NCBI GenBank assembly: GCA_035268685.1
Contig: DATFKK010000145.1
Coordinates: 168-64,167 of the forward strand
Reading direction: 5' to 3'
Source of the DNA: Candidatus Krumholzibacteriia bacterium
GTDB taxonomy: Bacteria; Krumholzibacteriota; Krumholzibacteriia; JAJRXK01
DNA length: 64,000 bases
This document shows positions 6,426-55,062 of the stretch, in pieces. Below the pieces are notes generated by a model that had not been told where the DNA came from, did not search any database, and was given only the letters and a program-made list of their open reading frames with translations. Numbering within the stretch: the first letter of the stretch is position 1; each line of letters begins with the position of its first letter. The position numbers and the translations under genes were made by a program.

Positions 6426-6432
6426 AACTCGG

Positions 6433-8554: not shown

Positions 8555-8638
8555 GGGGTAGGAGTTCCCGGGCGACAGGAGGGGCCCCGGACACGGGCCC
8601 GCGTGGGGTCAGCGCTCCAGCGAGGGAACGCGAAGCAA

Positions 8639-9703: not shown

Positions 9704-9704
9704 G

Positions 9705-35613: not shown

Positions 35614-35641
35614 GCGCCGGCGCGGCGAAGGGAAGAGCGCG

Positions 35642-36352
35642 CTGCGCATCGACCTGCTGACCCTCTTCCCGCGGCTCTGCCGGCGCGTGCTGGCCGAGGG
35701 CGTGGTGGGACGAGCGCTGCAGCGTGGGACGGTGCGTTGCGTGGTGACGGACTTCCGGCTGTTCGCCGCCGACCGTCACGGAACCGTCGACGACACGCCC
35801 TACGGGGGCGGACCGGGCATGGTGATCCGGCCCGAGCCCGTGGTGGAGGCGGTCGAGTCGGTGCGGATCGGTCGGGCGCCGGTGGTGTTGCTGACACCGC
35901 AGGGACGGCGCTTCGACCAGCAACAGGCCGAGCGCTGGGCCGACATGCTCCAGCGTCCGGCGGGCGACGATGCGGGGCAGTTGATCCTGCTCTGCGGTCG
36001 CTACAAGGGTTTCGACGAGCGCGTCCGCGAGCTCGTGGTGACCGACGAGATCTCCCTCGGCGACTTCGTGTTGTCGGGGGGCGAACTGGCCGCCCTGGCG
36101 GTCATCGATGCGGTGGTGCGGCGCGTCCCCGGAGTGCTGGGTCGGCAGGAATCGGCCGACACCGACAGCTTCGGGCCGGCGCGCGACGGCCGCCTCGACT
36201 GCGGATGGTACACGCGTCCGCCGGAGTACCGTGGGCTGCCCGTGCCGGCCCCGCTGCTCTCGGGCGACCACGCCGCGATCGAGAAGTTCCGACAGCGGGA
36301 TTCCGAAGCGCGCACGCGCGCCCGGCGTTCCGACCTGAGCGACGACGCCTGA
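35642..36352 (+). CDS. trmD: tRNA (guanine37-N1)-methyltransferase TrmD (start non-canonical, see findings)
   Basis: RTVDDTPYGGGPGMV and SLGDFVLSGGE. The conserved N-terminus RIDLLTLFP is encoded in frame upstream of the first canonical start (GTG 35687). The coordinate given is the CTG aligned to Met1 of homologs. Confidence 0.8.
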   Translation: MRIDLLTLFPRLCRRVLAEGVVGRALQRGTVRCVVTDFRLFAADRHGTVDDTPYGGGPGMVIRPEPVVEAVESVRIGRAPVVLLTPQGRRFDQQQAERWADMLQRPAGDDAGQLILLCGRYKGFDERVRELVVTDEISLGDFVLSGGELAALAVIDAVVRRVPGVLGRQESADTDSFGPARDGRLDCGWYTRPPEYRGLPVPAPLLSGDHAAIEKFRQRDSEARTRARRSDLSDDA

Positions 36353-36442
36353 TCCGGTGACCCCGGGCGGGCGCAGACCCGACCCGCGGCGCGCCGCCGG
36401 GTGGACCCTCGGTCCCCGTGAGGGGCCGGACAGGAGCCGACC

Positions 36443-36805
36443 ATGAACATCCTCGATTCGATCCGTCACGACGGCGTGAAGCAGGACGTGCCCGACTTCC
36501 GTGTCGGCGACACCGTGAAGATCCAGGTGAAGGTGCGCGAGGGGAACAAGACGCGTCTGCAGATGTTCCAGGGCGTCGTCATCGACCGGAAGGGCTCGGC
36601 CATCGAGGAGTGCTTCACGGTGCGCAAGCTCAGCTCGGGCGTGGCCGTCGAGCGCGTGTTCCCGGTGCACTCGCCGAACATCGAGAGCATCGAGGTCGCC
36701 CGTCGCGGCAAGGTCCGCCGGGCACGCCTCAACTACCTGCGCGGGCGCAGCGGCAAGGGCGCGCGCATCGCCGAGCGCCGGGAAGACACCAGGACCAAGA
36801 GGTAG
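36443..36805 (+). CDS. rplS: 50S ribosomal protein L19
   Basis: [29 protein letters not shown]. Confidence 0.95.
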
Positions 36806-36814
36806 GTCCGGACC

Positions 36815-37480
36815 TTGTCCGGACCCGATCGCCGCCATCGCCTCGACCGGCGTCTCGCGCGCCGGGTCGAGGGGGGTCTCGTCGCCGGTGTCGACGAGGC
36901 GGGTCGTGGCTGCCTGGCCGGGCCCGTGGTCGTGGCCGCCGTGGTGCTCCCCGCCGACGCCGACCTCCCCGGGGTGCGTGACTCGAAACTCATGACACCC
37001 GACGCGCGCGAGGATGCCTACGCGCGCATCCGCGCCTGCGGTGCGCGCTTCGCCGCCCTCGCGGTCTCTCCGCGCGAGGTCGACCGCCTCAACGTGTTGC
37101 ACGCCAGCGAGCGCGGCATGGAGCGCGCGGTGGAGCGCCTCGAGCGCCGCCGCCGCTTCCGGGCCGGCGCCGTGCTCGTCGACGGACATCGTGTTCCCGC
37201 GGCTCTGGGCGGCCGGGGTGTGCCCCTGGTGAAGGGTGACGACCGGAGCCTGTGCATCGCCGCGGCGAGCGTGCTGGCCAAGGTGCTCCGCGATCGTCTC
37301 ATGCGGGCCTGGAGCCGCCGGTATCCCGTGTACGGTTTCGAGCGGCACGTGGGCTACCCGACCCCGCAACACCTCGACGCCCTCCGACGTCACGGTCCCT
37401 GTCCGCTGCACCGTTTCTCCTTCGCCCCGGTGGCCGCGGCCGCGCAGCCCCGGCTCGACGGTGACCTCGCGGCCGAGTGA
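36815..37480 (+). CDS. rnhB: Ribonuclease HII
   Basis: VAGVDEAGRGCLAGPVV, DSK motif. TTG start. Confidence 0.9.
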   Translation: MSGPDRRHRLDRRLARRVEGGLVAGVDEAGRGCLAGPVVVAAVVLPADADLPGVRDSKLMTPDAREDAYARIRACGARFAALAVSPREVDRLNVLHASERGMERAVERLERRRRFRAGAVLVDGHRVPAALGGRGVPLVKGDDRSLCIAAASVLAKVLRDRLMRAWSRRYPVYGFERHVGYPTPQHLDALRRHGPCPLHRFSFAPVAAAAQPRLDGDLAAE

Positions 37481-37516
37481 AGTCCACGACCCGCCTCCCG
37501 CGGGTGGTTCCCCGTC

Positions 37517-37900
37517 ATGTCCGATCACGATCCCCTGCGCGGAGCCGTCGAACGGGGCCGCGCGGGTGAGGACGTAGCTGCTCTGTACCTGCGGCTGCAG
37601 GGGTTCTCGATCCTCGACCGCAATCGGCGGGGCGACGGAGGGGAGATCGACCTCGTCGCACGCGAGGGCACGAGTCTCGTCTTCGTCGAAGTCCGCCTGC
37701 GGCGGGCGGGCGCGCGCGTTCCCGCGGCCGAATCGATCTCGGCGGCGAAACGGCTCCGGCTGCGCGCGGTCGCGGGGCGGCTGCTGCGCGACCGCGACGA
37801 CCTGGCCTGGCCGGCGCGCACCGTGCGTTTCGACGTGGTGACCCTGCGGCTCGACGACGACGGGCTCGACCTGCGGCACCTGCGGGCGGTTCGCGTCTGA
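37517..37900 (+). CDS. yraN: YraN-family (UPF0102) predicted endonuclease
   Basis: GEIDLVAREG..LVFVEVR pattern in the conserved position after rnhB. Confidence 0.85.
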   Translation: MSDHDPLRGAVERGRAGEDVAALYLRLQGFSILDRNRRGDGGEIDLVAREGTSLVFVEVRLRRAGARVPAAESISAAKRLRLRAVAGRLLRDRDDLAWPARTVRFDVVTLRLDDDGLDLRHLRAVRV

Positions 37901-37969
37901 GACACCGCGTTGACCCCGGCGCCGCGCGCTCACTACCTTTGCGTGGAGTCTCTTCCCGCGATCCGGCAG

Positions 37970-40900
37970 GTGTTCGTGCGCGCGACCAGCACAGTCCTCG
38001 TCCTGCTCGTCGTCCTGGGCGCCGGTGTGGCCCGTGCCGACGACGTCCCGCGGGTCGACCTGGATCGCACCCTCCCGCGCGCGTCCGACGCACCCACCCG
38101 CGTGCGATGGTTCCTGCAGCCCGATGGGGCGGATCTCTCGACACTGCAGCGCCGGGCCACCGACGACGGGGTGGACCTCGTCGCGCGCCTCGATCGCTTC
38201 GGCGGCGACTGGGTGATCGAAGCGGACGCCGCACGCGCCGCCGAGATCGAATCCACGTGGTCGGCCCTCGGAACGTTGCGGCGCGACGTCTCGGGCACGC
38301 CGGCCCTCGCCGGCTCGACCGCCCTCGTGGGTGTTCGCTCCTTCGTCTGGGACGAACTCGAGTACCAGGGCGATCCGGTCTCGACGATCGCGATCCTCGA
38401 CAGCGGCTGCGACACCGCGCACGACGACCTCGGCGATCCGCGCGACGACGACATCGACGAGCCGCCGCTGGCCGGCGACGCCAGCGACTGGTTCGACGTC
38501 CAGGGATCCTATCCGTCCGACCTCCGCCTGCGCGTGGCCGGCTGGCACGACGTGACCGACGACCTGCCCGACGCGGTCGGACCCTGGGACTACCACTTCC
38601 ACGGGACGGCGCTGGCGAGCGCGGGTTTCGGTGGGGGGCGGGTCGACGGCGACGGGCGTGGGGTGGCTCCCGGGGGCCGGCTCGCGATCGTGAAGACCTG
38701 GAACTTCGAGGACCGGTGGGAGGTCTGGGCCAGCGATCTGCTGCTCGGTTTCGACTGGGTGCTCGACCATGCGGACCGGCTCCGGATCCGCGCGTGTCTG
38801 GTGGGGGCGACGTGGGCGGAGGATCCCGGATTCGGCCCCGCGATCGACGCGCTCGCCGCACGCGGGATCGCCGTGGTGGCTCCGGCCGGCAACGAGCCCG
38901 GCGCCGACATGGGCTACCCCGCGCGCCTGCCCGGCGTGATCGGCGTCGGTGCCTCTGACGCTGAGGGTGCTGTCGCCACCTATTCCTCGTGGGCGCCGGG
39001 GGACGAAGACCCCGGGACGCTCGACCTGATCGCGCCCGGCGGGAGCAGGATCGATCCCGATGCCCGCCTGCGCGTGGCCGACAACGAACCCCAGGACGCG
39101 TACGCCTTCCGCTTCGGGACCTCTCTCGCCGCGGCCCACGTGGCCGGTACGATCAGTGTCCTGTCCGAGACGATGGCCTCGGTGTCGCACCCGTGGAGGG
39201 CCGACGCCTCGCAGGTGTCGTGGATCACCGACGTGCTCAGAGCCACCGCGGCCGAAGTCGCGGCTGCCGAATCGAGCGCCGTCTTCGAACCACGGGTCGT
39301 TCGGACCGGAGCCGATCGCTTCGCCGGTCACGGGCTCCTGCAGGTCCGAGCCGCCGTCGACGCCGTCCGCAACGTGGTGTGGCCGGGCGACGACGTGCCC
39401 TTCACGCTCGACGCCCCGACCGAGGGCCCCGCGGTGTGGGCGGCCCGGGTGCCGGTCTCGATCCCGCGACCGCTCGGCTTCCGACTGCAGGTCGGGGACC
39501 TGGCCGACTTCGATCTCGTCGTGTACCGCGAGACGGACGCCGGACTCGACCCCGTGGGCGCGAGCACGCGCGCGGGCGTGGGATTGGACGAGCGGGTGGA
39601 ACTGGCGACCTCGTGGACGGGTTGGGCCGTGGTGGTGGTCCGCCGGATCGAGGGCACCGGTCTGGCACGTCTCCGCGTGGAGAACCGTGCGCCCGTGCTC
39701 GAGGGTTGGCCCCTGGAGCTCAGCGCGCGCCAGGTCACCAGTCCGACCGGCTACGACTTCGGGAACGACGGCTCGACCGAGGTCGTCACCGTGAACAACC
39801 TGCAGGCCTTCCCCGACGGCCACGCCTTCCACGTCGTGACCCTGGCCGGCGAGGACGTCGGGATCTTTCCCGAGCAGTTCTTCACTCCGGGCCGGGCCGG
39901 CGAACTGACCGAGCCGGCGGTGGGCCGTCTGGGACCGGTGGAGGCCATCGTGGCCGGGAGCGAATTCGGTCAGGTGCTCGCGGTCGACGCCGCGGGCGAT
40001 CTGCTCTGGATCCGCACGGTGTCGTTGTTGTCGACCACGTCGCCCGTGCTGGTCGACGAGGGACCCGACGCGCGGATCGCCGTCGGGACCAGCGCCGGAA
40101 TCGCGATCCTCGATCCGAGTGGGCAGGTCGTCCAGGAGATCCCGATCGGCGGACCGGTCGAGGTCCCGCCCGCGGCGGGGGATCTCGACGGTGACGGACG
40201 CGACGAACTGCTGGTCGCCGACGTCGTGGGCAACGTGACCGCAGTCGAGACCGACGGCACGGTGTTGCCGGGCTGGCCGGTCGCCCTGGACGGTCGCTCC
40301 ACGGCTCCCGTGCTTCTCGGCACGGCCACCGGAACGCGGGTCGACGAGGTGGCGCTCGTCGGGCTCGACGGCGGCGGGGCGTGGCTGCACCGCTGGCGGA
40401 CCGACGGCAGCCGGATCGGGGCGACACCGATCACGCTCGACACCGATGCGCTCCCCGTGACGGCCCTTTCGCCTCTGGTCGTGGCCCGGCTCGAGCGAGG
40501 GCGCGCGCCGAGCTACGTGGTCGCGACCGTGGCCGGAGCCGAGGAGGCACCGATCGAGGCGCGGGTCCACGTGGTGGAACTCGATGGCTCGCAGAGGGTG
40601 TGGTCGCGGACACACGCCGCGCCGCACTTCGTCGACGGTCGCCTCGACGTGTACCGGGCCCTCCTCGGGGAACCGCGGGTGACCGACGTCACCGGGACGC
40701 CCACACGCGAGATCGTGGTCCCGACCATCGTCGGGTGGGGCGAAAGCGTTCGCGGGATCGAGTACCGCTACGGACTCGTGTCGGAACTCGTCCGGTGGAG
40801 CACGACCGCCGGGGCGGTGCCGATCGCGGTGGAACTCCCGCGCGAGCGATTCCCCGATCGTCGCACCGTCGCGCCGCTCGTGCAGGACCTCGACGGTGAC

Positions 40901-41347
40901 CAGCGGGCGGAGTGGATCACGGCACGGGGCAGTGCCCTGACCCTGCTCGGCAGCGGGACCGTCGACACCGCTGTCGGCGCATGGACCGACGAGCGGGGTG
41001 GCTCGGACCGTCGGGGGTGTTTCGAGTGCCGCGAGCGCGTCGCGGTGGACGTCCCGGAGACCACGAGCCTTTTGCGTCCGGAGCTCGAAGTGCACCCGAA
41101 CCCCTTCAACCCGCGGACGTCGATCCGTCTCCGCGTGCCACGGGCCGGAGCCGTGCACTGGTCCGTCTTCGACGCGCGGGGGCGGCGTGTTCGCGAGGAG
41201 TACGGTCGGGTCGATGGGGCCGGCACGGTCGAGTGGCGCTTCGACGCGACCGACGACACCGGATCGCCTCTCGCCAGTGGGGTCTATCACGTGGTGGCGC
41301 GGTGGAACGCGAGAACGGCCCACGCCCGTATGGTTCTGGTGCGCTGA
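37970..41347 (+). CDS. Secreted S8 subtilisin-like peptidase with FG-GAP/VCBS-like repeats and T9SS C-terminal sorting domain
   Basis: Signal peptide (VLVLLVVLGAGVARA); catalytic triad context DSGCDTAHDDL, HGTALAS, GTSLAAAHVAG; repeats DLDGDGRDELLVADV and DLDGDQRAEWI. The last 85 aa (HPNPFNPRTSIRL...SGVYHVV) fit the type IX secretion CTD. The start is ambiguous among TTG 37910, GTG 37943 and GTG 37970. Confidence 0.8.
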   Translation: MFVRATSTVLVLLVVLGAGVARADDVPRVDLDRTLPRASDAPTRVRWFLQPDGADLSTLQRRATDDGVDLVARLDRFGGDWVIEADAARAAEIESTWSALGTLRRDVSGTPALAGSTALVGVRSFVWDELEYQGDPVSTIAILDSGCDTAHDDLGDPRDDDIDEPPLAGDASDWFDVQGSYPSDLRLRVAGWHDVTDDLPDAVGPWDYHFHGTALASAGFGGGRVDGDGRGVAPGGRLAIVKTWNFEDRWEVWASDLLLGFDWVLDHADRLRIRACLVGATWAEDPGFGPAIDALAARGIAVVAPAGNEPGADMGYPARLPGVIGVGASDAEGAVATYSSWAPGDEDPGTLDLIAPGGSRIDPDARLRVADNEPQDAYAFRFGTSLAAAHVAGTISVLSETMASVSHPWRADASQVSWITDVLRATAAEVAAAESSAVFEPRVVRTGADRFAGHGLLQVRAAVDAVRNVVWPGDDVPFTLDAPTEGPAVWAARVPVSIPRPLGFRLQVGDLADFDLVVYRETDAGLDPVGASTRAGVGLDERVELATSWTGWAVVVVRRIEGTGLARLRVENRAPVLEGWPLELSARQVTSPTGYDFGNDGSTEVVTVNNLQAFPDGHAFHVVTLAGEDVGIFPEQFFTPGRAGELTEPAVGRLGPVEAIVAGSEFGQVLAVDAAGDLLWIRTVSLLSTTSPVLVDEGPDARIAVGTSAGIAILDPSGQVVQEIPIGGPVEVPPAAGDLDGDGRDELLVADVVGNVTAVETDGTVLPGWPVALDGRSTAPVLLGTATGTRVDEVALVGLDGGGAWLHRWRTDGSRIGATPITLDTDALPVTALSPLVVARLERGRAPSYVVATVAGAEEAPIEARVHVVELDGSQRVWSRTHAAPHFVDGRLDVYRALLGEPRVTDVTGTPTREIVVPTIVGWGESVRGIEYRYGLVSELVRWSTTAGAVPIAVELPRERFPDRRTVAPLVQDLDGDQRAEWITARGSALTLLGSGTVDTAVGAWTDERGGSDRRGCFECRERVAVDVPETTSLLRPELEVHPNPFNPRTSIRLRVPRAGAVHWSVFDARGRRVREEYGRVDGAGTVEWRFDATDDTGSPLASGVYHVVARWNARTAHARMVLVR

Positions 41348-44268: not shown

Positions 44269-45203
44269 GCGAAGCTCCCCGCGATCGACGAGACCTCGTC
44301 CTCGACCGAGGCGATCACGTCCTCCACCCGTTCGGGCGCGGTGTCGAGTTCACGGCAGAGCGATTCGACCCTTCCGCTGGCGTTCGGGTTGCGGCACGTG
44401 CGTGCGTAGCCGTGCAGGTCGAGCATCGCGTTGACCACGGCCACACCGAGAACCAGGGGGTCGTCCCGGATCGCGTCGATCGGTTCGTGGTGCCGGGTGA
44501 TGGCACCGAGGAGTTCGTCGGGCAGTCCCCAGCGCTCGTGGACCAGTCCGCCCACCTGCTGATGATCGATTCCCAGCAGCCGGTGTTCTCCGACCGGTTC
44601 GAGCGCAGTGGCGGCGTTCGCCTCGATCTCGCGGCGCACCCGGGGGTAGAACTCGCTCATCGCGATCCGTCCCACGTCGTGCAGGAGGCCCGCCACGAAC
44701 ATCTCGTCGGCGACTTCGCGAAGGGCGCCGACCTTGCGCGGCAGGCGCGCGGACGCCAGGCCGCTGGCAAGACTGAACAGGAAGACGCCGTTGGGCTCGA
44801 AGGTCGGGACGCCCAGGGATCCGCCCATGGTGTTCCGGAGGCCGGCCGCCATGACGAGATTGGCGACGGTCCGGAAGCCCAGGGTCATGACCGCGCGGCC
44901 GACGTCGACGACCTCGCCCGAGCGGACGTAGAAGGGGCTGTTGGCCATCTTCAGCACACGCGTGGTCAGACTCGCGTCACTGGAGATGCGTTCCTCGAGG
45001 TGTTTGATGTCGGCGTCGGCGTCGCGCAGCTCGCGCATGAGCTCGTGCAACAACGCCGGCAGGGCGGGCAGGCGGCGGATCGCGGCGTCGACTTCGGCGG
45101 TCGACGGGCGCACGTCGGCGACTCCGGTGTTGGAGCCGGCCGCGGTTCCGCGGGAGCGTCGGGAATCGCGCGAGACGTAGTCGTCGTATCGGAGTTTCGC
45201 CAT
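44265..45203 (-). CDS. HDOD-domain signalling protein
   Basis: HDOD pattern (LPALPALLHELMREL...DIKHLEERISSDASLTTRVLKMANSPFY...GLLHDVGRIAM). AGGAGA RBS before ATG 45201-45203. Confidence 0.8.
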   Translation of the reverse strand: MAKLRYDDYVSRDSRRSRGTAAGSNTGVADVRPSTAEVDAAIRRLPALPALLHELMRELRDADADIKHLEERISSDASLTTRVLKMANSPFYVRSGEVVDVGRAVMTLGFRTVANLVMAAGLRNTMGGSLGVPTFEPNGVFLFSLASGLASARLPRKVGALREVADEMFVAGLLHDVGRIAMSEFYPRVRREIEANAATALEPVGEHRLLGIDHQQVGGLVHERWGLPDELLGAITRHHEPIDAIRDDPLVLGVAVVNAMLDLHGYARTCRNPNASGRVESLCRELDTAPERVEDVIASVEDEVSSIAGSFA

Positions 45204-45378
45204 GGTCTCCTGGTCCCCAGGACCGCGGGTTCTCGGGTTGGCGTTGCCTCGGGCGTGCGCTAGTGTCCGCTCGTTCGAGCGGGAACCTTCCGTCGTACCG
45301 CGTACCGGTGCGTACGGGACGCGCGTCACCCTCCAGAACCGGGGCATCGATCGTGCCCGAACGACCCCGTCGCCGCCC

Positions 45379-48300
45379 ATGAGCTACCTCCGAGCGCTCG
45401 ACGCGGCGCGATCGCACCTCGATCGCGGCGACCTCCTCGCGGCCGAGGCCGAACTCGAACGCGCCCATGACGAATGGAGGCGGTCCCGCGTCCGTGCGCC
45501 CCTCGTCGAGCGCGGACTGGAACCGGCCCTGCGCCGATTCGGCCGTTGGTTCGGGAGGAAGTCGACGTCCCCCGTCCTCCCCGTCTTCGGCCACCGGGCC
45601 ACCAGACTGGAGGACGATCTCCGCGCGTTGGCCAGACTCCTCCACGACGAGGCCCTGCGCACCGCAGGCCGTGAGGCCAAGGATCTCGTCGAGTCCGACC
45701 GCCAACTGCTCGAGCGCGCCCTCCGCCTGGACCGGCGGAGCCGGATCTTCGGATTCGAACGCCCCGAGCGCTGGGACGTGCTCCACGGCTACCTCGAGGC
45801 CTGCCGCCGCCTGGCCCGCAGCGTGGACGAGGGCCTGCTCCCCACCGACGTGGCCGACGCCACGCAGGAGGAGTGGCTCGGGCGGTGGGCCGAATCGGTG
45901 TTGTCGGGGAGCGGCGTCGTGTCGACGCCCCTGCTGCGATGGCTGGAGCGTCAGGCCGCGGCGGTGGCTCGCCTGGAGGGTCCCGGGGCCGACGCCTGGA
46001 GCTGGATCGCGGCGCGAGGAGCCCTGCGCGATCCCGAGGGAGGCGAACGGGCCCTCGCGCACGTCGAGCGCGCGCTGCGCGGCGACCTCGACGAAACGTC
46101 GCGGGAGGCGGCACGTCGGGCACTGGCCGGACTGCTCGTGAACGAGGGGGTTCTCGCGGTCCCGGGGGCCGATGCCAGGGAGGCGCTCGAGCGCTGGACC
46201 CCGGAGGAGCACGGTGCGGTCTGGCCGCCACCGGAGATCGCGGAGCTGCTCGACGCCCGGACCGCGCGTGCGGACGAGCGACCGGTGGCATCGGTGGTGT
46301 GGAGTGGCGACGCGGCGAACCTCGTGGTCGTCCTGCATCGCGGCAGCACGCCACTCGACGCCCTCGCCGTGTCGCCGCGTGTCGACGCGGGGGAGGGGAG
46401 GTCGCGGTTCGAGGCGTCCCTGCCCGAGGTTCGTGGCTGGCTCCGGCGATGGCTTCCCGACGGGACGCTGATCCTGGCCGACGGAACGCTGCCCGCAGGA
46501 CTGGCCGAACTCTTCGCCTGGTGGCAGGTGCTCGACGTCGAGGCCCTGGTACACCGGATCGACAGTGGGGGCGATCCCGTCGAGGAGACCGCTCCGGTCG
46601 CGCCGCACCCCCTCTGGAGCGGGCCCCACGGGCACCCGGTCTTCCGCCCCCTGGCCGACCGCGCCCGAAGCCTCGTGCCACGCCTCCGGGGGTGGATCCG
46701 CGCCAGTCCCTCGTTCACCGAGCCCTGGGGACGCGACGCCCTCGGCCAGCTCGCCGACCACGGATTGGAGCTGTGCGGGCTCCTGCGCCAGGCGATCGAA
46801 CGCCTCGACGAAGCCCGACCCGGCGGCGAGAGACGGTTGCAGACCGTGGACCTGGTGGTGCCCCTGCAGTGGCCGCGCCTCGAGACCCGCGACTGGCCGA
46901 TGGCGTCGACCGGCGATCCGATTCCGACCGGACGCGGGGTCGATCGCTCGCGCCGGGGGACCATCTGGCACGATCGGCCGGCGACCCCGGAGGAGTTGGT
47001 CGACGTCGCCAGCTCGAGCGAGCGCGCGGAACTCCTGACCGCGAGCCTGTCGCGGGCCCGGGATCTTGCCGCGCGGAGTGCCGCCCGGATCGATCCCCGG
47101 CGGGTGAGCGTGGCCCCGCGCCGGGTGCGGTGTCCGGAGGCCTGGCTGCGACGGCTCGACGACACCATCCGCACGGCGGTGGGTGCGTCCGAGCGACAAC
47201 TGCACGTTCTCGCACTGTGGAAGTCCCTCGCCGAGACCCCCAACGGGGATCCCGACCTGCCCGGGGACCTGCCGGCTCCCCCCGTCCCGGATGCCGTCTG
47301 TGGCGACGCCTGTCGGCTCACCGCCCGCGGTGGCTGCTGGCCGGCCCAGATCGAGGGCCGCCGTGAGGCGGCACGGGTGTGGGTGGTTCCGATCGGGGAG
47401 TCGGGGCTGACGCTGGAGGAACCGTCCGACACGTTGTTCGACGATCCGCGCACGTGGACGGTCGGCATCGACGACACCGGAGCCGCCGACCGCCTGGCCT
47501 TCACCATCGACCGCGCCCGGGCGGCGGATCGATCGTGGGTCTGGGTCGTCGGCGGTGTGCTCGATCCTGCCCTGCGGACCCACTGGAATCGAATGGTTCC
47601 CGTCGCCCTCCACCAGGTGACGAGCGAGAGCCGGGAGGCCGCCGACGTGGTGATGGCTCCGCCGGGCTATCGGCCGGGTGATCCGGTGCTCGGGGAGTGG
47701 TCCGAGCGGGTCCTGGAACGTCGGATCGCCGCGTGGCGCGAACTCGGGGGCGGTGATCACCGCTGGTGGGAGCCGGTCGGATCGCCGCCGGACGCGGCGG
47801 CCTCGGTCGAGGGTGCGGGGACCGGACGGTCGCACCGCTTGGTCGTGACCGCGCGCCTCGCCGGACCTGCCGTCCGGGATCCACTGCTGCTGCTGCTGCG
47901 GGCCACGGCCGGTCTCGGCCACGCGGCGGAGAGCTGGGTCTGCCTCGACCCTCGCCTGGCGCACGTGCTCGGCAGCGAGGGGGGCTGGTTCCATGGCGAA
48001 GCGTCCCGTCGCGGGGGGACCCGTGGAGGTGCGGCCGAGGCGCTCGACGCGAGTGTCGCGAGCGGGCGCGATCTCCTGACTGCGCGCGGGGTGCAGGCGG
48101 GCGCCGCGTGGACCACACCCCTCGACGCCGATCGCCTGCGCGCCGCCGCCGCGGTCCGTGACGAGAGCCAGGACTTCGGCGCCGAGGCGCTGGCGCGGAC
48201 CACGCGGGACTGGGCCCGCGGTCGACCGCTGATCGTGGGGGGCGCGACCGACCGCCAGCGCGATCGCGTCGTGCGTCTGGTCCGCGAGCTCTCCGAGCGC

Positions 48301-51300
48301 AGCGGTGACGGCGGTCCGCTCGGGGTGCGTTGCGTGGTCGTCGTCGGAACACCGCCCGTCGACGAGCTCGATGCCAGGTCTGCCGTCGTCGGGCCCGGCG
48401 AGGTGGAGCGTCTGGGGGCCATCATGCTCGAGGCCGAGCGTGGTCGTCTCTCGCGCGTCGATCTCCATCCGCTCCTGCTGCTCGAGGACGCCGTCCGGGA
48501 GTGGGCGCAACGCGTGTCGAGCGTGGCCTGGGTCTTCGTGCACGGCGAAGAGGTCCTGGCCACCCTCGAGAGCATCGACGGGCCGGCGTCGGAGGCGGCG
48601 GCCATGCACCCGTGGCGCGACGTTCTCGAGCGTTCCGGCGCGGGGGCGATGGTCTTCGTCGACGCCGTCGAATCCGACGCCCGCAGCGTGCCGGCGCGCT
48701 GGGCCGCCGCCCTCGACGCCCGCGTCGCCGTCGTCGAGACCGGTCGCGAGGCCTTTCCGCGCTGGCGTCTCGAGGTCGAGGTGATCGACGTTCCGGCTCT
48801 GGAGTGCCCCGAGTGCGGATCCGCAGTGCCGAGTGATCCCTCCCTGATCGCGTGCCCCGCCTGCGGTCGGACGCTGCCGGGGGATCCTGCGTCGGAGCGG
48901 CACCGCCTGCGGGCATTCGAGAACGCGCTGGTGCGCGCGTTGCAGCGGCCCACCGACGAACCGTGGTGGGCGATCGGGGCCGATGCCGATCTGGTGCAGC
49001 GTCTGCGCTCGCGGCTGGGGTTCGAGAGCTACACGGAGGACCAGGCGCCCCTCCTGGCCGGGGTCGGGGCCGGAGAGCACGGTCCGGACGTCCTGCACGT
49101 CGAGGCGCTGCGCCACCGGAGCGGTCCTCCCCCTGGCCTGCTCTGGATCGATTGCCCGCGCTCGGTGTCCGAACTCGAGGGCCTCCTCCTGCGACTGACC
49201 GCGATGGAAGCGCCGGCGCCCCGTCTTCGGTTGTTGCTCCCCCCGGTCGGTGCGAGATGGGCGGCCGATCCCCGTCTCGCCGGCCGGTGGCGATGGACCG
49301 CCAGCCGGACCGAGGTGGAGTTCCGTCTGCGCGGCACGGGCCCCGCGCGTTCGCGTCGCCCGTCGCACGCGGGGCTGCGTCCGGAACCGGAGCAACCCTT
49401 CGACCGACCCGGAGTCATCGCCCGACGCAGAGGGGTCCTCGGCGTCGACGCCGACCGACCCGCTCCCGACCCGTCGGCGATGCTCGATGCGCTCGACGCC
49501 GTGGGGCCGGTCTTCGGGGCGGTGACGGCGGCACCGATCGACGAGGCGGCTCTTCCTGCCGACGTGGACGTGGAGGAACTCGCCGGACTCCTGGACTGGG
49601 CACGGCGGGCCGAGGTGATCGAACGCGTCGACACCGAGGGTGCCGACGTCGTCGAGCTCCCGTCCTTCGAGCGCGCGATCCGTGGGGTCGCTCCCGACGC
49701 GACCGTGGCCCTGGCGGACGTGGTCACGGGAGACATGCGCGGCTCGGCCACCGAAGAGGTCGCGGAGCCGCACCCGGGAGCGGTCCGGGCGTCGGTGATC
49801 GGGGGCGAGGGCGAGCGTCGTTTGCGCGACGACGTGGAACGAGCCGCGCTCCGTGGAGACCGGGTCCTGGTCGTCGTCGCGCATCCCGGCGGGCGTCTTC
49901 GCTGGGAGCCCCTCGCGAGCGAAGGGGCCGACGTCGTCGACATCGAGGAGCTGGCTCTCGCCTTCCTCGACGCGAGCTCGGGCCGGAGCGAAGGCGACGT
50001 GGTGCGTCGCCTCCTCCCGGTGGGCGGGGCCGCCGAAGGAGAGGAGGTCCGACTGCGACTGATGCGGGGCGCCTCGCGGCGCTACGTGCGGGCCACCGGG
50101 AACGTCCCGGCGATCGAGGCGCAGGACCTGAGGCGTGTGGTCCAGGGTGAGGCCGGTGCGATCGCGCCCGGTTCGGCCGCGGACGTCGACCTCGATCTGC
50201 TCTCCCGGTGCGCAGCCCAGGCCCGGGCCGAGGCCGGCTGGATGACGCCGGCCGAGTTGCGTGTCGCCACGGTCCGGGCGGTCGAGCGCGAAGCCGAGCT
50301 GGTCGAGCGATGGCGACGTCGCTATCGCTGGGCGGCCGTCGACGGAGCCCACGACGTTCCGCCCGATCTGCTCGAGTTCGTCCGGGCGCTGTTCCCGACA
50401 CCGCGCCGATGGGAGCTCTTCGATCCGCTCCTGATGCCGTCCGACGCGGACGTCCCGGTCGGCGCCGAGGCCACGGTGAGCGCCACCCTGCCCCGCGAGT
50501 GGGTGGGGGCGATCGAGACGCTCCGGCGATCGGATCCCGCACTGCCGAGTCGTCTGCGGACGACTCGCCGCGGACGCGGGGCGGGAACGGTCGAACGGGT
50601 GCGGGTGCTGACCCTGCAGGCCGCGGCCGAGTGGGTGATCGAGCAGGTGCCGCCGGACCGCGCTGCCGATCGGACCGGAGTGGTCGTCGGCCACGAGCAC
50701 GACCGGGCCGAACTGCGGGCCGCACTGGAGCGCGCGGGCCACGCCGTGGTGGAGGACCGCACGGCGGCGAGTTGGCTGGCGAGTGGACCGCGGCACCTGC
50801 TCGCAGCGTTGAGACTGGTGGTCTTCGAGCCGGAGGCCGGGGTGCTCGACGTGCTCGCGCGTCTGGATCCCGTTCTGCGCGACGCCGATCACGAGGCCCG
50901 GTTGCAGCGCTGGATCGCGGCCGAGACCGACGTCTCGGGTCTCGACGTGCGAGAACTCCGCCTGGCTCGACTGCACCGCGTGCGCGAGCGGGTCGATGCG
51001 GAGGATCGTCTGGTCGACGCGGCCGCCGCGGTGCTCGACAGCGGCATCCTCGATCCTCTGCTCGGCGCCGATGCCGCGTCGGGACGCCTGCGCGATTGGT
51101 TGGCCGACCACGGTTCCCGTTCGGTGGCCGAGGTCCTGGCGCGGCTCGATTCCGCCCTGGTGGTCGATCCCGTGGCGCCCGGTCGCGGTCTTCACCTGCT
51201 GGCCCCCGACGACCTGGCCGGGCCCGACCATGATCACGTGATCGCCATCGGGACCGGCTACGAGCTGCCGGCTCGTCTCGTGCGCGTGCTCCTGCGGGCC

Positions 51301-51348
51301 CGACGGCGGGTCAGTCTCCTCTACTCCGAGCGCGACCCTCTCGCCTGA
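45379..51348 (+). CDS. Giant (about 1990 aa) hypothetical protein with no recognised catalytic motif, carrying an internal 4-Cys zinc-ribbon-like motif
   Basis: Uninterrupted frame with very high GC3 (ctc/gac/gcg/gag codons) typical of genuine genes here. No Walker A, TM or signal segments. CPECGSAVPSDPSLIACPACG lies near residue 1150. ATG 45379 chosen; the ORF is open from 45202. Confidence 0.7.
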   Translation: MSYLRALDAARSHLDRGDLLAAEAELERAHDEWRRSRVRAPLVERGLEPALRRFGRWFGRKSTSPVLPVFGHRATRLEDDLRALARLLHDEALRTAGREAKDLVESDRQLLERALRLDRRSRIFGFERPERWDVLHGYLEACRRLARSVDEGLLPTDVADATQEEWLGRWAESVLSGSGVVSTPLLRWLERQAAAVARLEGPGADAWSWIAARGALRDPEGGERALAHVERALRGDLDETSREAARRALAGLLVNEGVLAVPGADAREALERWTPEEHGAVWPPPEIAELLDARTARADERPVASVVWSGDAANLVVVLHRGSTPLDALAVSPRVDAGEGRSRFEASLPEVRGWLRRWLPDGTLILADGTLPAGLAELFAWWQVLDVEALVHRIDSGGDPVEETAPVAPHPLWSGPHGHPVFRPLADRARSLVPRLRGWIRASPSFTEPWGRDALGQLADHGLELCGLLRQAIERLDEARPGGERRLQTVDLVVPLQWPRLETRDWPMASTGDPIPTGRGVDRSRRGTIWHDRPATPEELVDVASSSERAELLTASLSRARDLAARSAARIDPRRVSVAPRRVRCPEAWLRRLDDTIRTAVGASERQLHVLALWKSLAETPNGDPDLPGDLPAPPVPDAVCGDACRLTARGGCWPAQIEGRREAARVWVVPIGESGLTLEEPSDTLFDDPRTWTVGIDDTGAADRLAFTIDRARAADRSWVWVVGGVLDPALRTHWNRMVPVALHQVTSESREAADVVMAPPGYRPGDPVLGEWSERVLERRIAAWRELGGGDHRWWEPVGSPPDAAASVEGAGTGRSHRLVVTARLAGPAVRDPLLLLLRATAGLGHAAESWVCLDPRLAHVLGSEGGWFHGEASRRGGTRGGAAEALDASVASGRDLLTARGVQAGAAWTTPLDADRLRAAAAVRDESQDFGAEALARTTRDWARGRPLIVGGATDRQRDRVVRLVRELSERSGDGGPLGVRCVVVVGTPPVDELDARSAVVGPGEVERLGAIMLEAERGRLSRVDLHPLLLLEDAVREWAQRVSSVAWVFVHGEEVLATLESIDGPASEAAAMHPWRDVLERSGAGAMVFVDAVESDARSVPARWAAALDARVAVVETGREAFPRWRLEVEVIDVPALECPECGSAVPSDPSLIACPACGRTLPGDPASERHRLRAFENALVRALQRPTDEPWWAIGADADLVQRLRSRLGFESYTEDQAPLLAGVGAGEHGPDVLHVEALRHRSGPPPGLLWIDCPRSVSELEGLLLRLTAMEAPAPRLRLLLPPVGARWAADPRLAGRWRWTASRTEVEFRLRGTGPARSRRPSHAGLRPEPEQPFDRPGVIARRRGVLGVDADRPAPDPSAMLDALDAVGPVFGAVTAAPIDEAALPADVDVEELAGLLDWARRAEVIERVDTEGADVVELPSFERAIRGVAPDATVALADVVTGDMRGSATEEVAEPHPGAVRASVIGGEGERRLRDDVERAALRGDRVLVVVAHPGGRLRWEPLASEGADVVDIEELALAFLDASSGRSEGDVVRRLLPVGGAAEGEEVRLRLMRGASRRYVRATGNVPAIEAQDLRRVVQGEAGAIAPGSAADVDLDLLSRCAAQARAEAGWMTPAELRVATVRAVEREAELVERWRRRYRWAAVDGAHDVPPDLLEFVRALFPTPRRWELFDPLLMPSDADVPVGAEATVSATLPREWVGAIETLRRSDPALPSRLRTTRRGRGAGTVERVRVLTLQAAAEWVIEQVPPDRAADRTGVVVGHEHDRAELRAALERAGHAVVEDRTAASWLASGPRHLLAALRLVVFEPEAGVLDVLARLDPVLRDADHEARLQRWIAAETDVSGLDVRELRLARLHRVRERVDAEDRLVDAAAAVLDSGILDPLLGADAASGRLRDWLADHGSRSVAEVLARLDSALVVDPVAPGRGLHLLAPDDLAGPDHDHVIAIGTGYELPARLVRVLLRARRRVSLLYSERDPLA

Positions 51349-51641
51349 CCGACCACGGTCGACGGTGGGAAGGGTCGGCCCCTCGGCGGTGGGAACTCCC
51401 TTCCGCATGATGCGTCGCGCCGGGACCGGGAACCGGCCCGATCCACCCATGCGTGGCACGCGTGACCCTCTCGGGGAACTGGCACGCCTCGTGCGGAGGC
51501 GAATGCGGACGTTCACGCAGGCCCGTTCCGGGGCCGGAAGCCGTGCGAACGCCGATGCCGCCGTTCGGGAGACCCGCAATCCGCACGATCGCGATCGGGA
51601 TTCGGGACCGAGCCCAGATCGCACGAAGGAGCAAGGAAACC

Positions 51642-52202
51642 ATGAAGAGCTTGCGCACGATCTCGCTGCTGGCCGTGGCCGCGACCGTCCTGTTCGCGTC
51701 CGTCGCCCAGGCCGCCCCCACCGTCGCCCTGTACATCGGCGACGAGAACCACGAGGCCGCCACCATCAAGCCGAACACCCCGACCCCGCTGAACATCTAC
51801 GTCGAGGGCATCGACGACACGATCTTCTCGGTCGAGTACAAGGTCGGTCTGCCGTCCGACCTGTTGGTCGTCTCGAACACCTACTACCCCGGAGCCCTCG
51901 ACTTCGGTTCGAGCGCGAACGGGGCCGCCATCGGGATCGGCGAGTGCATCTCGAGCTTCCAGGAGACCATGGGTCACGACCCGCTGTGGGTCCACACGAT
52001 CACCGTGTACTCGCTCGGCTTCCTCGACGCGACCGACATCACCGTGGGTCCGTACGAGGGCTACGCCACCGATCCGGCCACCCCGCGTTACTCGGACTGC
52101 GGTGGCAACATCAAGCCGCTCGACGGCAAGGGCGCGACCATCGCCGTGACCAGCGTCTCCAATGGCGAGGACAGCTGGGGCGCGGTGAAGTCCCTGTACT
52201 AG
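51642..52202 (+). CDS. Secreted hypothetical protein (186 aa)
   Basis: AAGGAG RBS; cleavable signal peptide MKSLRTISLLAVAATVLFASVAQA; no recognisable domain. Confidence 0.65.
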   Translation: MKSLRTISLLAVAATVLFASVAQAAPTVALYIGDENHEAATIKPNTPTPLNIYVEGIDDTIFSVEYKVGLPSDLLVVSNTYYPGALDFGSSANGAAIGIGECISSFQETMGHDPLWVHTITVYSLGFLDATDITVGPYEGYATDPATPRYSDCGGNIKPLDGKGATIAVTSVSNGEDSWGAVKSLY

Positions 52203-52238
52203 GCTCGGATCCGCCACGGGTGGAAACGGGAACGACGA

Positions 52239-52270
52239 GGGTCCGGCCGTCTGGCCGGGCCCTTTCGTCG
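52239..52270 (+). terminator. Rho-independent-like terminator (GGGUCCGGCC-gucu-GGCCGGGCCC followed by UUUCGUCG)
   Basis: 10-bp GC stem with one G-U pair, followed by a U-rich tract. Confidence 0.5.
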
Positions 52271-52473
52271 TGGCGCGAAGGCCCTGCGCGACGATGTCGT
52301 TCCTGCACCCTCCCGGGCCACTCCCCGATCCGCACGGACGACGATCGGTGCGCAACCCGGAGCGGGCGGATCGCGTCTTCTGGTTGTGCACCGCGTCGAT
52401 CGGGGCGACGATGCGTCCGCGGTCCGTGTCGGAGCCGCCCGCGGCCCGCGCGTGGTGACGAGAGGCAGGCAAT

Positions 52474-53133
52474 GTGGACGTCGAAGTCTTCCCCGATGCT
52501 CTTCCCGGAGCCCGGCGCTATCCGGAGATCGCGCGTCGCGCCGCCACCCACGTCGCGCTGACCGAGAGGGTCGGTCGGCTCACGCTGGCGCTCGACGCGC
52601 CCGAATTCGAGGGGTCGGGATACTGGCAGGTCGAATCGGAACGCGACGGATCGGTGCACGCCACGCTCTACGGGTCTCCCTCCGACGTCCTGCGTCTCGA
52701 CACGCGGGTTCTCGGACTCGATCTGGCCCGCCTCGACGTCGAGGCGCTCGTGGCCACGCCGGGCGTGCGGTTCGAACCACTGCTGCTCGATCGGTGGCTC
52801 CACCGCAACCTTCTCCAGCTCGCGGACCTGCTGGAGCAGCGGGTCCGGCCGGCCGAGGTCGCCCGACACCAGGCGGCCGCCCTGCAGGCCTGCTGGGACG
52901 TGTGGACCGACGGCCGTCTCCGCCAGTGGCAGAAGCCCGGGCTGAGTCAGGCCGAGCGGCGACGCGTGTTCTATCGGATCTTCACGCGCCGCAGCCCGCT
53001 GCTGCCCCGGCACTGGCAGGTGTTCCACGAGCTGTGGGAGGGACATCTGCGCGACCACGAAGGACTGGTGGCGGCGGTGGAGCGTCTGCCCACCGCGATC
53101 TCGCTCGGTCCCAGATCGAGCGTGTCGTCGTAG
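52474..53133 (+). CDS. Hypothetical cytoplasmic protein (219 aa)
   Basis: GTG start; high GC3; no signal peptide; no recognisable motifs. Confidence 0.5.
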   Translation: MDVEVFPDALPGARRYPEIARRAATHVALTERVGRLTLALDAPEFEGSGYWQVESERDGSVHATLYGSPSDVLRLDTRVLGLDLARLDVEALVATPGVRFEPLLLDRWLHRNLLQLADLLEQRVRPAEVARHQAAALQACWDVWTDGRLRQWQKPGLSQAERRRVFYRIFTRRSPLLPRHWQVFHELWEGHLRDHEGLVAAVERLPTAISLGPRSSVSS

Positions 53134-53176
53134 GAACCCTCGGGCGCCCGGCGCCCGGCCATCCCCCCTCCGTACC

Positions 53177-54052
53177 GTGACCACGAGACCGCGTACCGCT
53201 CTCGCACTGCTGGTCGTGCTCTGCACGCTCGTGCCGGGTATCGGTCGGGCCGGAGCGTGGCTGCAGCCGGAGGGCGGAGCCTTCGTCAAGACCAGCTGGC
53301 TGTACCTCGACACCGACCGCCGCCACGACTGCCGCGGCGACGAGGAGCCCGCGGCGTCCTTCGACGGGAGCTTTCGCGAGCACCAGGCCTTCGTCTACGG
53401 GGAGTTCGGCCTGCACCGCCGGGTGACGGCGCTGGTGTCGATGGCGGTCAAGGACGCCCGGATCACCGACGCCGTGGTTCCCGAGTTCGGGACGAGGTCG
53501 ACGGGCGATCTGCGCCTGGGCGCGCGTTGGGGCCTCGCCACCGGCTCGATCCCGGTTTCGCTCGAGACGGTCGTCTCGGTTCCGACCTACCCCGAGAGCG
53601 ATCTCAGCGACCCCGTGGGCGAGCGGGAGCAGTTCCTCCCCGCGGGGACCGGCCGGATCGAGATCGAGACGCGGCTCCAGGCCGGGGCGTCGCTGTACCC
53701 CCTGCCTGTCTACGCCAATCTCGCTCTGGGGCGGCGCGACCGCGGTGGGGTGTTCGGGGACCAGTGGACCGTGGCGGCCGAGGTGGGGGCGACCTTCGAT
53801 CGCGTGTTCGTGAAGTCCGACCTGAGCGCGGTCCTGGCCGACGGTGACCTCTGCGCCGGGGAGGCGGCGGTCGGCGCGGTCACGGTGCACGAGCAGAGTC
53901 TGCGCTGGAGTCCCGAGGCTTCGTGGCGTCTCGCGGGCGACGTGTGGGTCGGCGCCGGGGCGTCGTTCCTCGTCTCTGGGCGGAACACGCTCGACGGCAC
54001 GCAGTGGAGCCTGTCGGTGGCCTGGCAGCGTCGGCCGGGCGGCGGGGGCTGA
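53177..54052 (+). CDS. Hypothetical outer-membrane beta-barrel-like protein (291 aa)
   Basis: Signal peptide ALALLVVLCTLVPGIGRAGA; alternating amphipathic strands; aromatic-rich C-terminus (WSLSVAW). Confidence 0.5.
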   Translation: MTTRPRTALALLVVLCTLVPGIGRAGAWLQPEGGAFVKTSWLYLDTDRRHDCRGDEEPAASFDGSFREHQAFVYGEFGLHRRVTALVSMAVKDARITDAVVPEFGTRSTGDLRLGARWGLATGSIPVSLETVVSVPTYPESDLSDPVGEREQFLPAGTGRIEIETRLQAGASLYPLPVYANLALGRRDRGGVFGDQWTVAAEVGATFDRVFVKSDLSAVLADGDLCAGEAAVGAVTVHEQSLRWSPEASWRLAGDVWVGAGASFLVSGRNTLDGTQWSLSVAWQRRPGGGG

Positions 54053-54069
54053 TCGGAGCGGGGCTGCGG

Positions 54070-54099
54070 TTGACACCGGCCGAACCCCGAACGTATCGT
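54070..54099 (+). promoter_or_regulatory. Putative promoter GGTTGACACC-N18-TATCGT for the downstream lipoprotein gene
   Basis: Same extended -35 element as the tyrS and rRNA promoters. Followed by a small hairpin and a GGAGGA RBS. Confidence 0.4.
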
Positions 54100-54198
54100 A
54101 CCGGGGTTTGCGGAGAGGGCCTCCGCACTTCGAGACATCGAACCGGAGTCCCCCTGTCGGGGCTCTCCCGAGAAAACGGAAATCGGAGGAAGTTCTCC

Positions 54199-55062
54199 AT
54201 GATCTCCAGGTCTGCCGACCGGTCCCGGTCCGCGGCGGGGCGCCGCCCCTTCGCACTGCGCACCCTGCTCGCCTGCGTGGCGATGTCCGCCGCGCTGGTC
54301 GCCGGCTGCGGTGAAGAGGAAGAGGTCGATCCCTACGTCTACGGAACGCTCGACCAGGTCACGCGTGGCCACGTGCAGAGCGAGGGATATCTCTTCGAGG
54401 TCGACGCGCCGGAGTTCGTGCTGCTCGACGGCAACACGGGCATCGCGCGCGTGGGCAACCACCTCGAGGTGATCGTCGCCGACGATCTCGAGAACCGTGC
54501 GGCCAACTGGGAGGGCAAGCTGCTCGGCGTGCAGAAGTTCTACTCTCCCTACGTCTGGCTCATGGTCAAGCGCGTGAGGGAGCCGGTGGGCGAGACCTTC
54601 AACGTCACCGAGCTCGATTCCGTGCCCGACCCGGTGCTCCCCGAGTTCACCGACGTGGACCTCGAGGAAGTCAGCGGCTTCGACCTCGGCTCGCTGCGCT
54701 ACAACCAGCGCGAAGCGATCGAGGACATGGTCGACGCCGAGGTGCAGGGTGTGGGCGTCGTGTCCCAGCTGCCCGACCACGAGTGGGAAGCACCCGAGGA
54801 GGCCGCCGACGACACCACGGTCGCCGAGCCGCCCATGGAGTGGTACCTGCAGGCCGAGGGCAGCGATGCCACCTTCAAGATCACCAACGTCACGCCGGAG
54901 CTGGAGCTGGCCTTCGAGCTGCTGCAGGCCGAGAACCTGCCGTTCATCGGTGGTGTGAGGATCATGGAGCCCTACCCCTGGGTCGAGCGTCGTGAGTCGC
55001 GCGTGAGTGCGCCGGTCGAGGTCACCTTCGTCCGCTACGCGAACCGGTACCTCGCTCCCTGA
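54199..55062 (+). CDS. Hypothetical lipoprotein (287 aa)
   Basis: Lipobox LVAGC followed by an acidic EEEE linker; GGAGGA RBS. Confidence 0.65.
   Translation: MISRSADRSRSAAGRRPFALRTLLACVAMSAALVAGCGEEEEVDPYVYGTLDQVTRGHVQSEGYLFEVDAPEFVLLDGNTGIARVGNHLEVIVADDLENRAANWEGKLLGVQKFYSPYVWLMVKRVREPVGETFNVTELDSVPDPVLPEFTDVDLEEVSGFDLGSLRYNQREAIEDMVDAEVQGVGVVSQLPDHEWEAPEEAADDTTVAEPPMEWYLQAEGSDATFKITNVTPELELAFELLQAENLPFIGGVRIMEPYPWVERRESRVSAPVEVTFVRYANRYLAP

Follow-up and report, generated by a model that had tools for sequence, protein, structure and literature searches.

The question raised by this locus is what an unannotated gene of about 6 kb encodes. The DNA analyzed, here called the window, is a 64,000-nucleotide stretch of contig DATFKK010000145.1 from a Candidatus Krumholzibacteriia bacterium, and the gene lies on its plus strand at 45379..51348 (1,989 codons plus stop). 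A sequence-only reading had presented the product as a domain-less orphan and a candidate for a new structural or regulatory system. We find that this lineage-specific, multi-lobed, helicase-like giant protein is a new architecture around a known module: its C-terminal ~525 residues are those of a UvrD-like superfamily 1A (SF1A) helicase, its N-terminal two-thirds are unique in sequence, and its family displays an unusually clear gradient of inactivation. The function we propose, tentatively and with not quite even confidence, is that of a non-motor pseudo-helicase in this genome, which would act as a nucleic-acid-binding or scanning scaffold analogous to AddB and RecC.

Structure models of the two halves of the protein were built with AlphaFold2 from an 11-sequence alignment, giving a mean predicted local distance difference test score (pLDDT) of 84.8 and a predicted template modeling score (pTM) of 0.72 for residues 1-930 (N-half) and values of 76.8 and 0.46 for residues 931-1989 (C-half). 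When the C-half model was compared with the PDB by Foldseek, UvrD, Rep, and PcrA were matched at E values of 4e-12 (best, 3.6e-12; probability, 1.0) to 1e-9 over ~620 to 670 columns, with AdnA/AdnB (6ppj_A/B) at ~1e-10, RecB at 2e-8, and AddB at 9e-7. Using hhalign, a profile of the C-terminal module made from 19 family sequences was aligned to UvrD plus Rep with a probability of 92% and an E value of 6.5e-7 over 511 colinear columns extending from motif I to motif VI, family positions 2-544 corresponding to UvrD positions 13-619; against Escherichia coli UvrD alone, the E value was 3.9e-4. GvaGsGkT of the family pairs with GAGSGKT of UvrD, VvT.eELa with VGTFHGLA, VDDxxD with VDEFQD, fDhv..vCTG with LEFPQVFIVG, and RA..r.TvLYSE with TRAMQKLTLTY, and the 1B insert is also aligned; motif I, the TFH/Ib region, motif II, and motifs V/VI are therefore in the same order as in UvrD, Rep, and PcrA. 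The motif V/VI-like block at the C terminus (51196..51345, plus strand; LLAPDDLAGPDHDHVIAIGTGYE...RVLLRARRRVSLLYSERDPLA aligned to UvrD LMTLHSAKGLEFPQVFIVG...YVGVTRAMQKLTLTY) also aligns to the C terminus of RecD (E value, 0.027). These data establish residues 1466-1989 (49774..51345, plus strand) as a module with the predicted four-subdomain fold (1A-1B-2A-2B) of UvrD/Rep-type SF1A helicases, placed by profile alignment in their family (Pfam UvrD-helicase, PF00580, and the UvrD C-terminal families).

No curated Pfam or NCBIfam helicase model reached its gathering threshold in the window protein or in the other members. Members that bear the motifs gave sub-threshold matches far under the cut-offs (AAA_30, 0.054; UvrD-helicase, 0.062; AAA_19, 0.04), plus AddB_N. 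On the full window protein, Pfam, NCBIfam, and PADLOC returned no above-threshold family and, below threshold, only zinc-ribbon matches at residues 1142-1165; slices of the N-half and the middle of the protein, compared with single UvrD, RecB, and RecD sequences, gave no signal. Three other identities were rejected. In a STAND nucleoside triphosphatase (NTPase) with a tetratricopeptide repeat (TPR) sensor, the order of parts would be the reverse of that found here, where the chain starts with the TPR-like part and has the P-loop module at its C terminus, and the UvrD alignment runs from end to end; one family member has a weak nSTAND5 match (E value, 0.0058). An SMC-like or other long coiled-coil ATPase does not fit the model, which shows only short helices and alpha/beta lobes. 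An anti-phage defense helicase is opposed by the lack of a PADLOC match and by the fixed core-chromosome position of the gene across the phylum.

In the window protein, the catalytic motifs of this module are destroyed. The relic of motif I (Walker A; 49792..49815, plus strand) reads SVIGGEGE where other members have G[IV][AP]GSG[KR][TS], and the relic of motif II (Walker B; 50338..50355, plus strand) reads VDGAHD where UvrD has VDEFQD, so that neither GxxxxGK[ST] nor DExx is present. Motif III (GDxxQ in UvrD, Rep, and PcrA) is replaced by an invariant D1682-P1683. That the window protein lacks a P-loop had been noticed from the sequence, and SVIGGEGE at the homologous position bears this out. 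Among the 19 members with the C-terminal module, Walker A is of the form GSGK[TS] in 8, of the GSGR[TS] type in 7 (further degraded in P0014), and lost in 4 (the window protein, P0003, P0004, and P0005); Walker B is DD in 14, ED in 1, and DG or EG in the same four proteins. In a neighbor-joining tree, Lys-bearing and Arg-bearing members are sisters at least three times (L007 versus L009/L011, L008 versus L010, and P0011 versus P0016), and further Arg lineages (P0009/P0014 and P0010) bring the independent Lys-to-Arg changes to at least four. These are old, repeated substitutions and not sequencing errors, since the codons in the sister pairs are AAG versus CGC. Complete loss of the motifs maps to one ancestor, which is sister to the GK[TS]-bearing clade of P0006-8.

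This pattern bears on whether the protein could be an active SF1A DNA helicase or translocase, that is, a lineage-specific UvrD/PcrA-like motor of repair or replication with a very large accessory N terminus. The fold and the colinear order of motifs are those of UvrD/Rep, and eight family members have both GSGK[TS] and DD; judging from these motifs, such deeper-branching members may bind or hydrolyze ATP. However, the window protein has SVIGGEGE and DG at the two sites and, with 3 Lys in 1,989 residues (0.2%, compared to 13% Arg and 3% Trp), none of them conserved, it has no catalytic lysine available. Arg stands at the catalytic Lys position in seven further members, and no Pfam helicase model scores above threshold. 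An active motor is quite improbable on this evidence. The ~1,450 residues that precede the module are also without counterpart in UvrD-like enzymes. Within the window's clade, identity is 0.51 to 0.56 in the UvrD-like module versus 0.33 to 0.65 in other segments. Because the motif-dead module matches the rest of the protein in conservation, ATP hydrolysis is, as read from these identities, evidently dispensable for whatever selection maintains the giant protein.

The plus strand is the coding strand, since the homologs match its frame and that frame stays open across loci. The longest plus-strand open reading frame (ORF) is 45202..51348, and the ATG at 45379 is the conserved start: the orthologs all begin with MSY, MAY, or MNY, M1 and Y3 being invariant, which gives a protein of 1,989 residues. 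The alignment of the giant protein with ten full-length homologs (1,950 to 2,072 residues, 30 to 51% identity) starts at M1 and extends to SE.DP at the C terminus (mostly LYSERDPL); at 6/6 loci checked, no stop interrupts the frame. The real, very large gene that had been called from the sequence was thus confirmed by its orthologs and open frame; its coding-type GC content at third codon positions, which had been offered as the proof, is a weaker argument. The GC content of the window is ~70% and that of the gene is 74%, and by codon position it is 0.82/0.55/0.85 in the plus frame and 0.84/0.57/0.80 in the antisense ORF, so composition alone separates the strands weakly and homology decides between them.

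The antisense ORF (44977..51624, minus strand; 2,215 codons) is a noncoding shadow of the giant gene, as had been suspected, and matches no Pfam or NCBIfam family. A stop in the antisense register requires a TTA, CTA, or TCA codon in the sense frame. These account for 0.6% of the codons for Leu and 1.8% of those for Ser in 18 other genes of the window; 3.2 were expected in the giant gene and 0 were observed (Poisson P, ~0.04). In the five orthologous loci, the same register is interrupted by 6 to 15 stops. The near absence of these codons from the genome, together with those stops, rules out the minus-strand ORF as a real gene and makes 6.6 kb of open antisense frame in a gene of 74% GC an illustration of a codon-usage artifact.

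Selection on the gene was assessed against an 88%-identical relative, L014, over residues 1-930; the ratio of nonsynonymous to synonymous substitution rates (dN/dS) was 0.13 to 0.18, which shows, at the level of sequence comparison, that the gene is under purifying selection. A decaying relic or miscalled ORF without function would agree with the lost catalytic motifs, with the very narrow family, and with the rank of this gene as the fastest evolving of the compared neighborhood genes. However, a frame of ~6 kb is open in every ortholog down to 30% identity, dN/dS is low, and many columns of the alignment are invariant for Trp, Arg, or Cys, which makes a functionless relic scarcely credible. 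The L014 locus has a peculiarity of its own: its ortholog (6001-11969, on the contig of P0002) is called as two genes, of 1,134 and 855 residues, with a frameshift at residue 1134/1135. Compared with the window, dS is ~0.4 upstream of this junction and ~0.01, near identity, downstream; these values suggest that the contig either was assembled from two strains, as a chimera, or is a recombinant.

The chain ahead of the helicase module is divided, in the models and the alignment, into a series of further domains. Residues 1-295 (45379..46263, plus strand) form a predicted all-alpha, TPR-like solenoid, helical in the model over residues 2-294, with weak Foldseek matches to Nro1, 14-3-3, and PEX5-TPR; this is the most conserved segment (8.1% invariant columns; identity of 0.65 within the window's clade). 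Residues 296-415 (46264..46623, plus strand) are modeled as a small, beta-rich alpha/beta domain, which is followed by a loop with the invariant H410-P411 (xHPx). A helical bundle and two motif-less, RecA-like alpha/beta lobes are predicted for residues 416-930 (46624..48168, plus strand), with an invariant DD (688-689) after a predicted beta-strand. In Foldseek, the N-half gave helicase-type matches at E values of ≥0.01 with the exception of Upf1 (2xzp, 0.0098); Aquarius (8ch6_y) was at 0.064, and AddB and AdnB were among the proteins matched by the lobes. In the models, these parts resemble RecA-like helicase lobes.

The C-half begins with a Rossmann/RecA-like alpha/beta lobe (residues 931-1135; 48169..48783, plus strand), modeled with a beta-loop-helix element (LIVGGATDRQR) and with the invariant V1094-D1095 (FVD in the window) after a predicted beta-strand; it is possibly a relic NTPase lobe. 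Beyond the zinc ribbon lies another predicted alpha/beta lobe (residues 1169-1325; 48883..49353, plus strand) with invariant E1312, E1314, and R1316 (TEVEFR in most members). The least conserved region, residues 1326-1465 (49354..49773, plus strand), is modeled as a partly disordered linker and a small helical/beta unit; pLDDT falls below 50 in several stretches, and mean pairwise identity is 0.24. The label of a domain-less protein therefore did not survive: the chain has a UvrD/Rep-type C-terminal module and, at fold level, RecA-like lobes in the N-half, which to that extent assigns it to a known family such as the helicases, an outcome that the sequence-only reading had itself considered for most of the length.

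Two cysteine clusters lie between these lobes. The zinc ribbon (CxxC-x12-CxxC; 48805..48864, plus strand; C1143, C1146, C1159, and C1162; CPECGSAVPSDPSLIACPACG) gave sub-threshold matches to Pfam Zn_ribbon_3 and DUF7129 and to NCBIfam YgiT_finger. All four cysteines are present in 19/20 aligned members and are lost in P0010; metal binding is putative. This ribbon had been described as the only landmark of the protein. It is indeed the sole, weak signal in the profile libraries, but a second cluster of four cysteines had been missed (C585...C641-x3-C645-x7-C653; 47131..47337, plus strand), a candidate structural metal site (Zn or Fe-S [iron-sulfur]) between the two N-half lobes. In alignment A1, C641 is found in 9/10 sequences and the other three cysteines (C585, C645, and C653) are invariant. 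Almost every member of the extended alignment retains the pattern, with a family spacing of C-x55-70-C-x3-C-x7-8-C, and its conservation equals or exceeds that of the ribbon. Residues 620-653 are lower-confidence coil in the N-half model.

As had been read from the sequence, obvious repeats are lacking: a local hhalign comparison of nine segments, all against all, found no internal repeats, with a faint echo between residues 1466-1700 (S8) and 1701-1989 (S9; E value, 0.005). In three successive lobes, an acidic residue is kept after a predicted beta-strand, in the position of a Walker B motif (D688-D689, D1095, and D/E1655, within residues 684-689, 1089-1095, and 1651-1656, respectively). These residues hint that the chain may derive from three NTPase-type modules. 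A candidate relic P-loop at residues 672-679 (PIGESGLT) was rejected since it is not conserved in the orthologs. Neither a signal peptide nor a transmembrane helix was found in the giant protein, and because it has no stretch of transmembrane-grade hydrophobicity (maximum Kyte-Doolittle hydropathy over 19 residues [KD19], 1.42), in agreement with the first reading of the sequence, it is best explained as a soluble, cytoplasmic protein.

What would a helicase-derived protein without a motor do? AddB contains four UvrD-like subdomains from which all helicase motifs but motif I are gone, and its dead helicase domain reads Chi; RecC is similar in using an inactivated helicase domain, and AdnA is an evolutionary intermediate that has kept Walker A and B while other motifs decayed (PMC3321194). 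The C-terminal module of the giant protein resembles AddB and RecC in having a UvrD-like fold with its helicase motifs lost. AdnA/AdnB, the mycobacterial dual-motor helicase-nuclease, is among the best structural matches of the C-half, and the decay of AdnA resembles the gradient seen in the family; unlike the giant protein, however, AdnAB is a heterodimer with nuclease domains. Aquarius/IBP160 and Upf1-like large SF1 helicases share the layout of a helical-repeat N terminus followed by helicase lobes but are eukaryotic SF1B-type RNA helicases with intact motifs; the matches are weak and give no sign of common descent.

One reading takes the likeness to these systems at its fullest, as a single-chain RecBCD/AddAB/AdnAB analog in which fused helicase-derived modules would process DNA ends and the four-cysteine cluster would be the counterpart of the Fe-S staple of AddB. 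The C-half matches to AdnA/AdnB, RecB, and AddB and the N-half matches to AddB and AdnB speak for it, as do the invariant acidic residue in each of the three lobes, the conserved 1+3 cysteine arrangement, and the RarA and RNase HII genes nearby. The giant protein, however, lacks a C-terminal RecB-family PD-(D/E)xK nuclease or nuclease-like domain: no family member has a PDDEXK Pfam match, no PD-(D/E)xK signature or invariant Lys is present, and nothing follows the helicase module, whose motif VI closes the chain. The cysteine cluster, which is placed between lobes of the N-half, differs in spacing from the Cx2Cx5C of AddB, Cas4, and Dna2. There is also no internal sequence duplication, and the neighbors belong to a plain collinear housekeeping block. 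We consider end processing by such an analog improbable. A broader version is unlikely as well: a single-chain machine of three helicase-derived modules (residues ~480-930, ~931-1325, and 1466-1989) that would be stapled by the four-cysteine, possibly Fe-S, site and the zinc ribbon, would be the Krumholzibacteriota counterpart of RecBCD/AddAB, and would have passed from motor to scaffold through the stages GKT, GRT, and motif loss.

In the pseudo-helicase scaffold that we favor, grooves derived from the helicase would hold single-stranded DNA or RNA, the TPR-like N terminus, as the most conserved part, would recruit or dock partners, and RecA-like lobes devoid of NTPase motifs would be joined by the four-cysteine site and the zinc ribbon as structural metal sites. 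Several observations weigh against this proposal. In addition to the lack of any nuclease or nuclease-like domain in the giant protein, an AddA- or RecB-like partner motor is missing: within ±10 kb of the gene at every locus, and in the remainder of the 64-kb window, there is no gene for a helicase or nuclease. Because of these two absences and the different cysteine spacing, the analogy with AddB and RecC is only partial; the giant protein is, moreover, a single chain of 1,989 residues found in one phylum only. The models stem from an 11-sequence alignment, with a C-half pTM of just 0.46, and the helicase likeness of the N-half is that of a generic three-layer alpha/beta fold, at 6 to 13% identity and Foldseek E values of ≥0.01. 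HMMER profiles of the full-length protein and of the C-terminal module found no helicase among PDB sequences. A Walker A arginine can still permit nucleotide binding, and some members are possibly ATP-dependent switches. Finally, the fast evolution of the gene relative to its neighbors fits a less constrained or different role as well.

If the scaffold proposal is true, one set of orthologs shows the passage of an SF1A motor into a pseudo-enzyme, with an intact Walker A, its Lys-to-Arg variant, and full loss coexisting under selection. Such a motor-to-scaffold passage has so far been deduced mainly from distant proteins, UvrD, AdnA, AddB, and RecC. These results also provide the first structural annotation for a core protein of 2,000 residues from an uncultured phylum; two-thirds of this protein is without sequence relatives elsewhere.

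The protein is not an orphan, as had been supposed, since at least 19 full-length orthologs were found. A scan of GTDB genomes gave six loci, and the four with named records are all from Candidatus Krumholzibacteriota or Krumholzibacteriia metagenome-assembled genomes. When 1.84 billion representative proteins were scanned exhaustively by HMMER with a profile of the N-terminal 1,173 positions, 18 were returned, all at E values of ≤1e-18 and all of the full-length type or fragments thereof, with none in the twilight zone. The same 11 clusters came back when the word-indexed search was repeated with the full alignment; a third search, with the C-module alignment, gave 0 matches and, as it missed the family itself, is uninformative. 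As far as can be seen from these searches, counted over homologs whose source is named, the family is tiny and confined to one uncultured phylum, Candidatus Krumholzibacteriota. Vertical inheritance is the best explanation of its distribution.

The gene order around the giant gene bears on two further readings. Upstream, on the minus strand, the window has genes for HDOD, GAF-SpoIIE/PP2C, and STAS proteins and then patatin. In L001-L005, the order is rimM, trmD, rplS, rnhB, UPF0102, and the S8 protease gene; then, on the opposite strand, patatin, STAS, PP2C, and HDOD; and then the giant gene, four genes without Pfam matches, pfk, rarA, thymidine phosphorylase, and PBP1. Each gene keeps its place in this order even at loci where identity of the giant protein is down to 31%, and the collinear block, housekeeping genes included, spans 25 kb. 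The giant gene is the fastest evolving of the compared neighborhood genes (31% versus 36 to 74% identity for its neighbors in L003). Core-chromosome genes elsewhere in the window include mreB, PBP2, rodA, pgk, fusA, tgt, fmt, ffh, and tyrS.

The divergent control region that the sequence-only reading had assigned to the giant gene and the HDOD, GAF-PP2C, and STAS genes is present, as are those genes, although the gap (45204..45378; not assigned to a strand) is 175 bp and not 176 bp. In comparisons of the window with L001, L006, and L014, its conservation exceeds that of the coding DNA on either side. Within it is a candidate plus-strand promoter, TTGGCG (45238-45243)-17 nucleotides (nt)-TAGTGT (45261-45266), which is recognizable in L002 and L003 too and was missed by the consensus promoter scanner; that scan for promoters and terminators called nothing in 44900-52000. 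A perfect palindrome, GGGCA-TCGATCG-TGCCC (45342-45358), starts 37 nt upstream of the ATG, ends 20 nt before it, and is limited to the window's clade. Rfam had no match in the intergenic region.

The conservation of this region within the window's clade, which is unusual, and the adjacency of the HDOD-PP2C-STAS trio, kept in L001-L006 and L014, would suit a giant protein that is the output or target of the divergent HDOD-GAF/PP2C-STAS partner-switching module. However, L007-L011, five Krumholzibacteriota genomes, lack the trio at this locus and have leuS immediately upstream of the giant gene instead. This identity was confirmed by Pfam only in L009, where leuS is on the same strand; an ORF of ~985 residues with the same C-terminal ending occupies the position in L007, L008, and L010, and in these four loci, where the start of the upstream ORF can be read, it ends ~55 nt before the ATG of the giant gene. 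The short gap suggests that leuS and the giant gene may be cotranscribed in the leuS lineages. Because the trio is missing there and leuS is in its place, the partner-switching link is not a property of the family; since the ~25-kb region is collinear as a whole, adjacency says little about functional coupling. The giant protein itself has no STAS, kinase, or phosphatase domain. A partner-switching role is very unlikely, and the conserved neighborhood with HDOD, STAS, and PP2C genes that had been put forward as a check holds for only part of the family. With the region identified as collinear housekeeping DNA, the new structural or regulatory system tied to that operon, a domain-less regulatory giant, is removed as a false lead.

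Downstream, four conserved genes, D1-D4 (51645-55062, plus strand), have no relatives in Pfam, NCBIfam, or the PDB. They had been listed as four uncharacterized envelope proteins; read by eye, this fits three of them, as D1 and D3 have signal peptides and D4 has a lipobox (LVAGC), but D2 (52474..53133) has neither. An envelope-associated structural system, formed by the giant protein with three secreted or lipoproteins and one cytoplasmic protein, would explain why, wherever the sequence of the locus is long enough, D2 and D4 homologs are found after the giant gene, also in the leuS lineages. At 47 to 79% identity, D2 and D4 far exceed the giant protein in conservation. Set against such a system are the gaps of 185 to 300 bp between the giant gene's stop codon and D1, the lack of a signal peptide or transmembrane helix in the giant protein, the synteny that is general across the region, and the absence among D1-D4 of any family or PDB relatives hinting at a joint function; we hold it to be a long shot.

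The S8 subtilase gene of the window (37910-41347, plus strand; 1,145 residues) encodes a protein that gives weak FG-GAP/beta-propeller matches and has a FlgD-Ig-like domain at its C terminus. An antisense shadow ORF of 1,942 codons lies opposite this gene too (35495-41323, minus strand), for the same codon-usage reason as in the giant gene.

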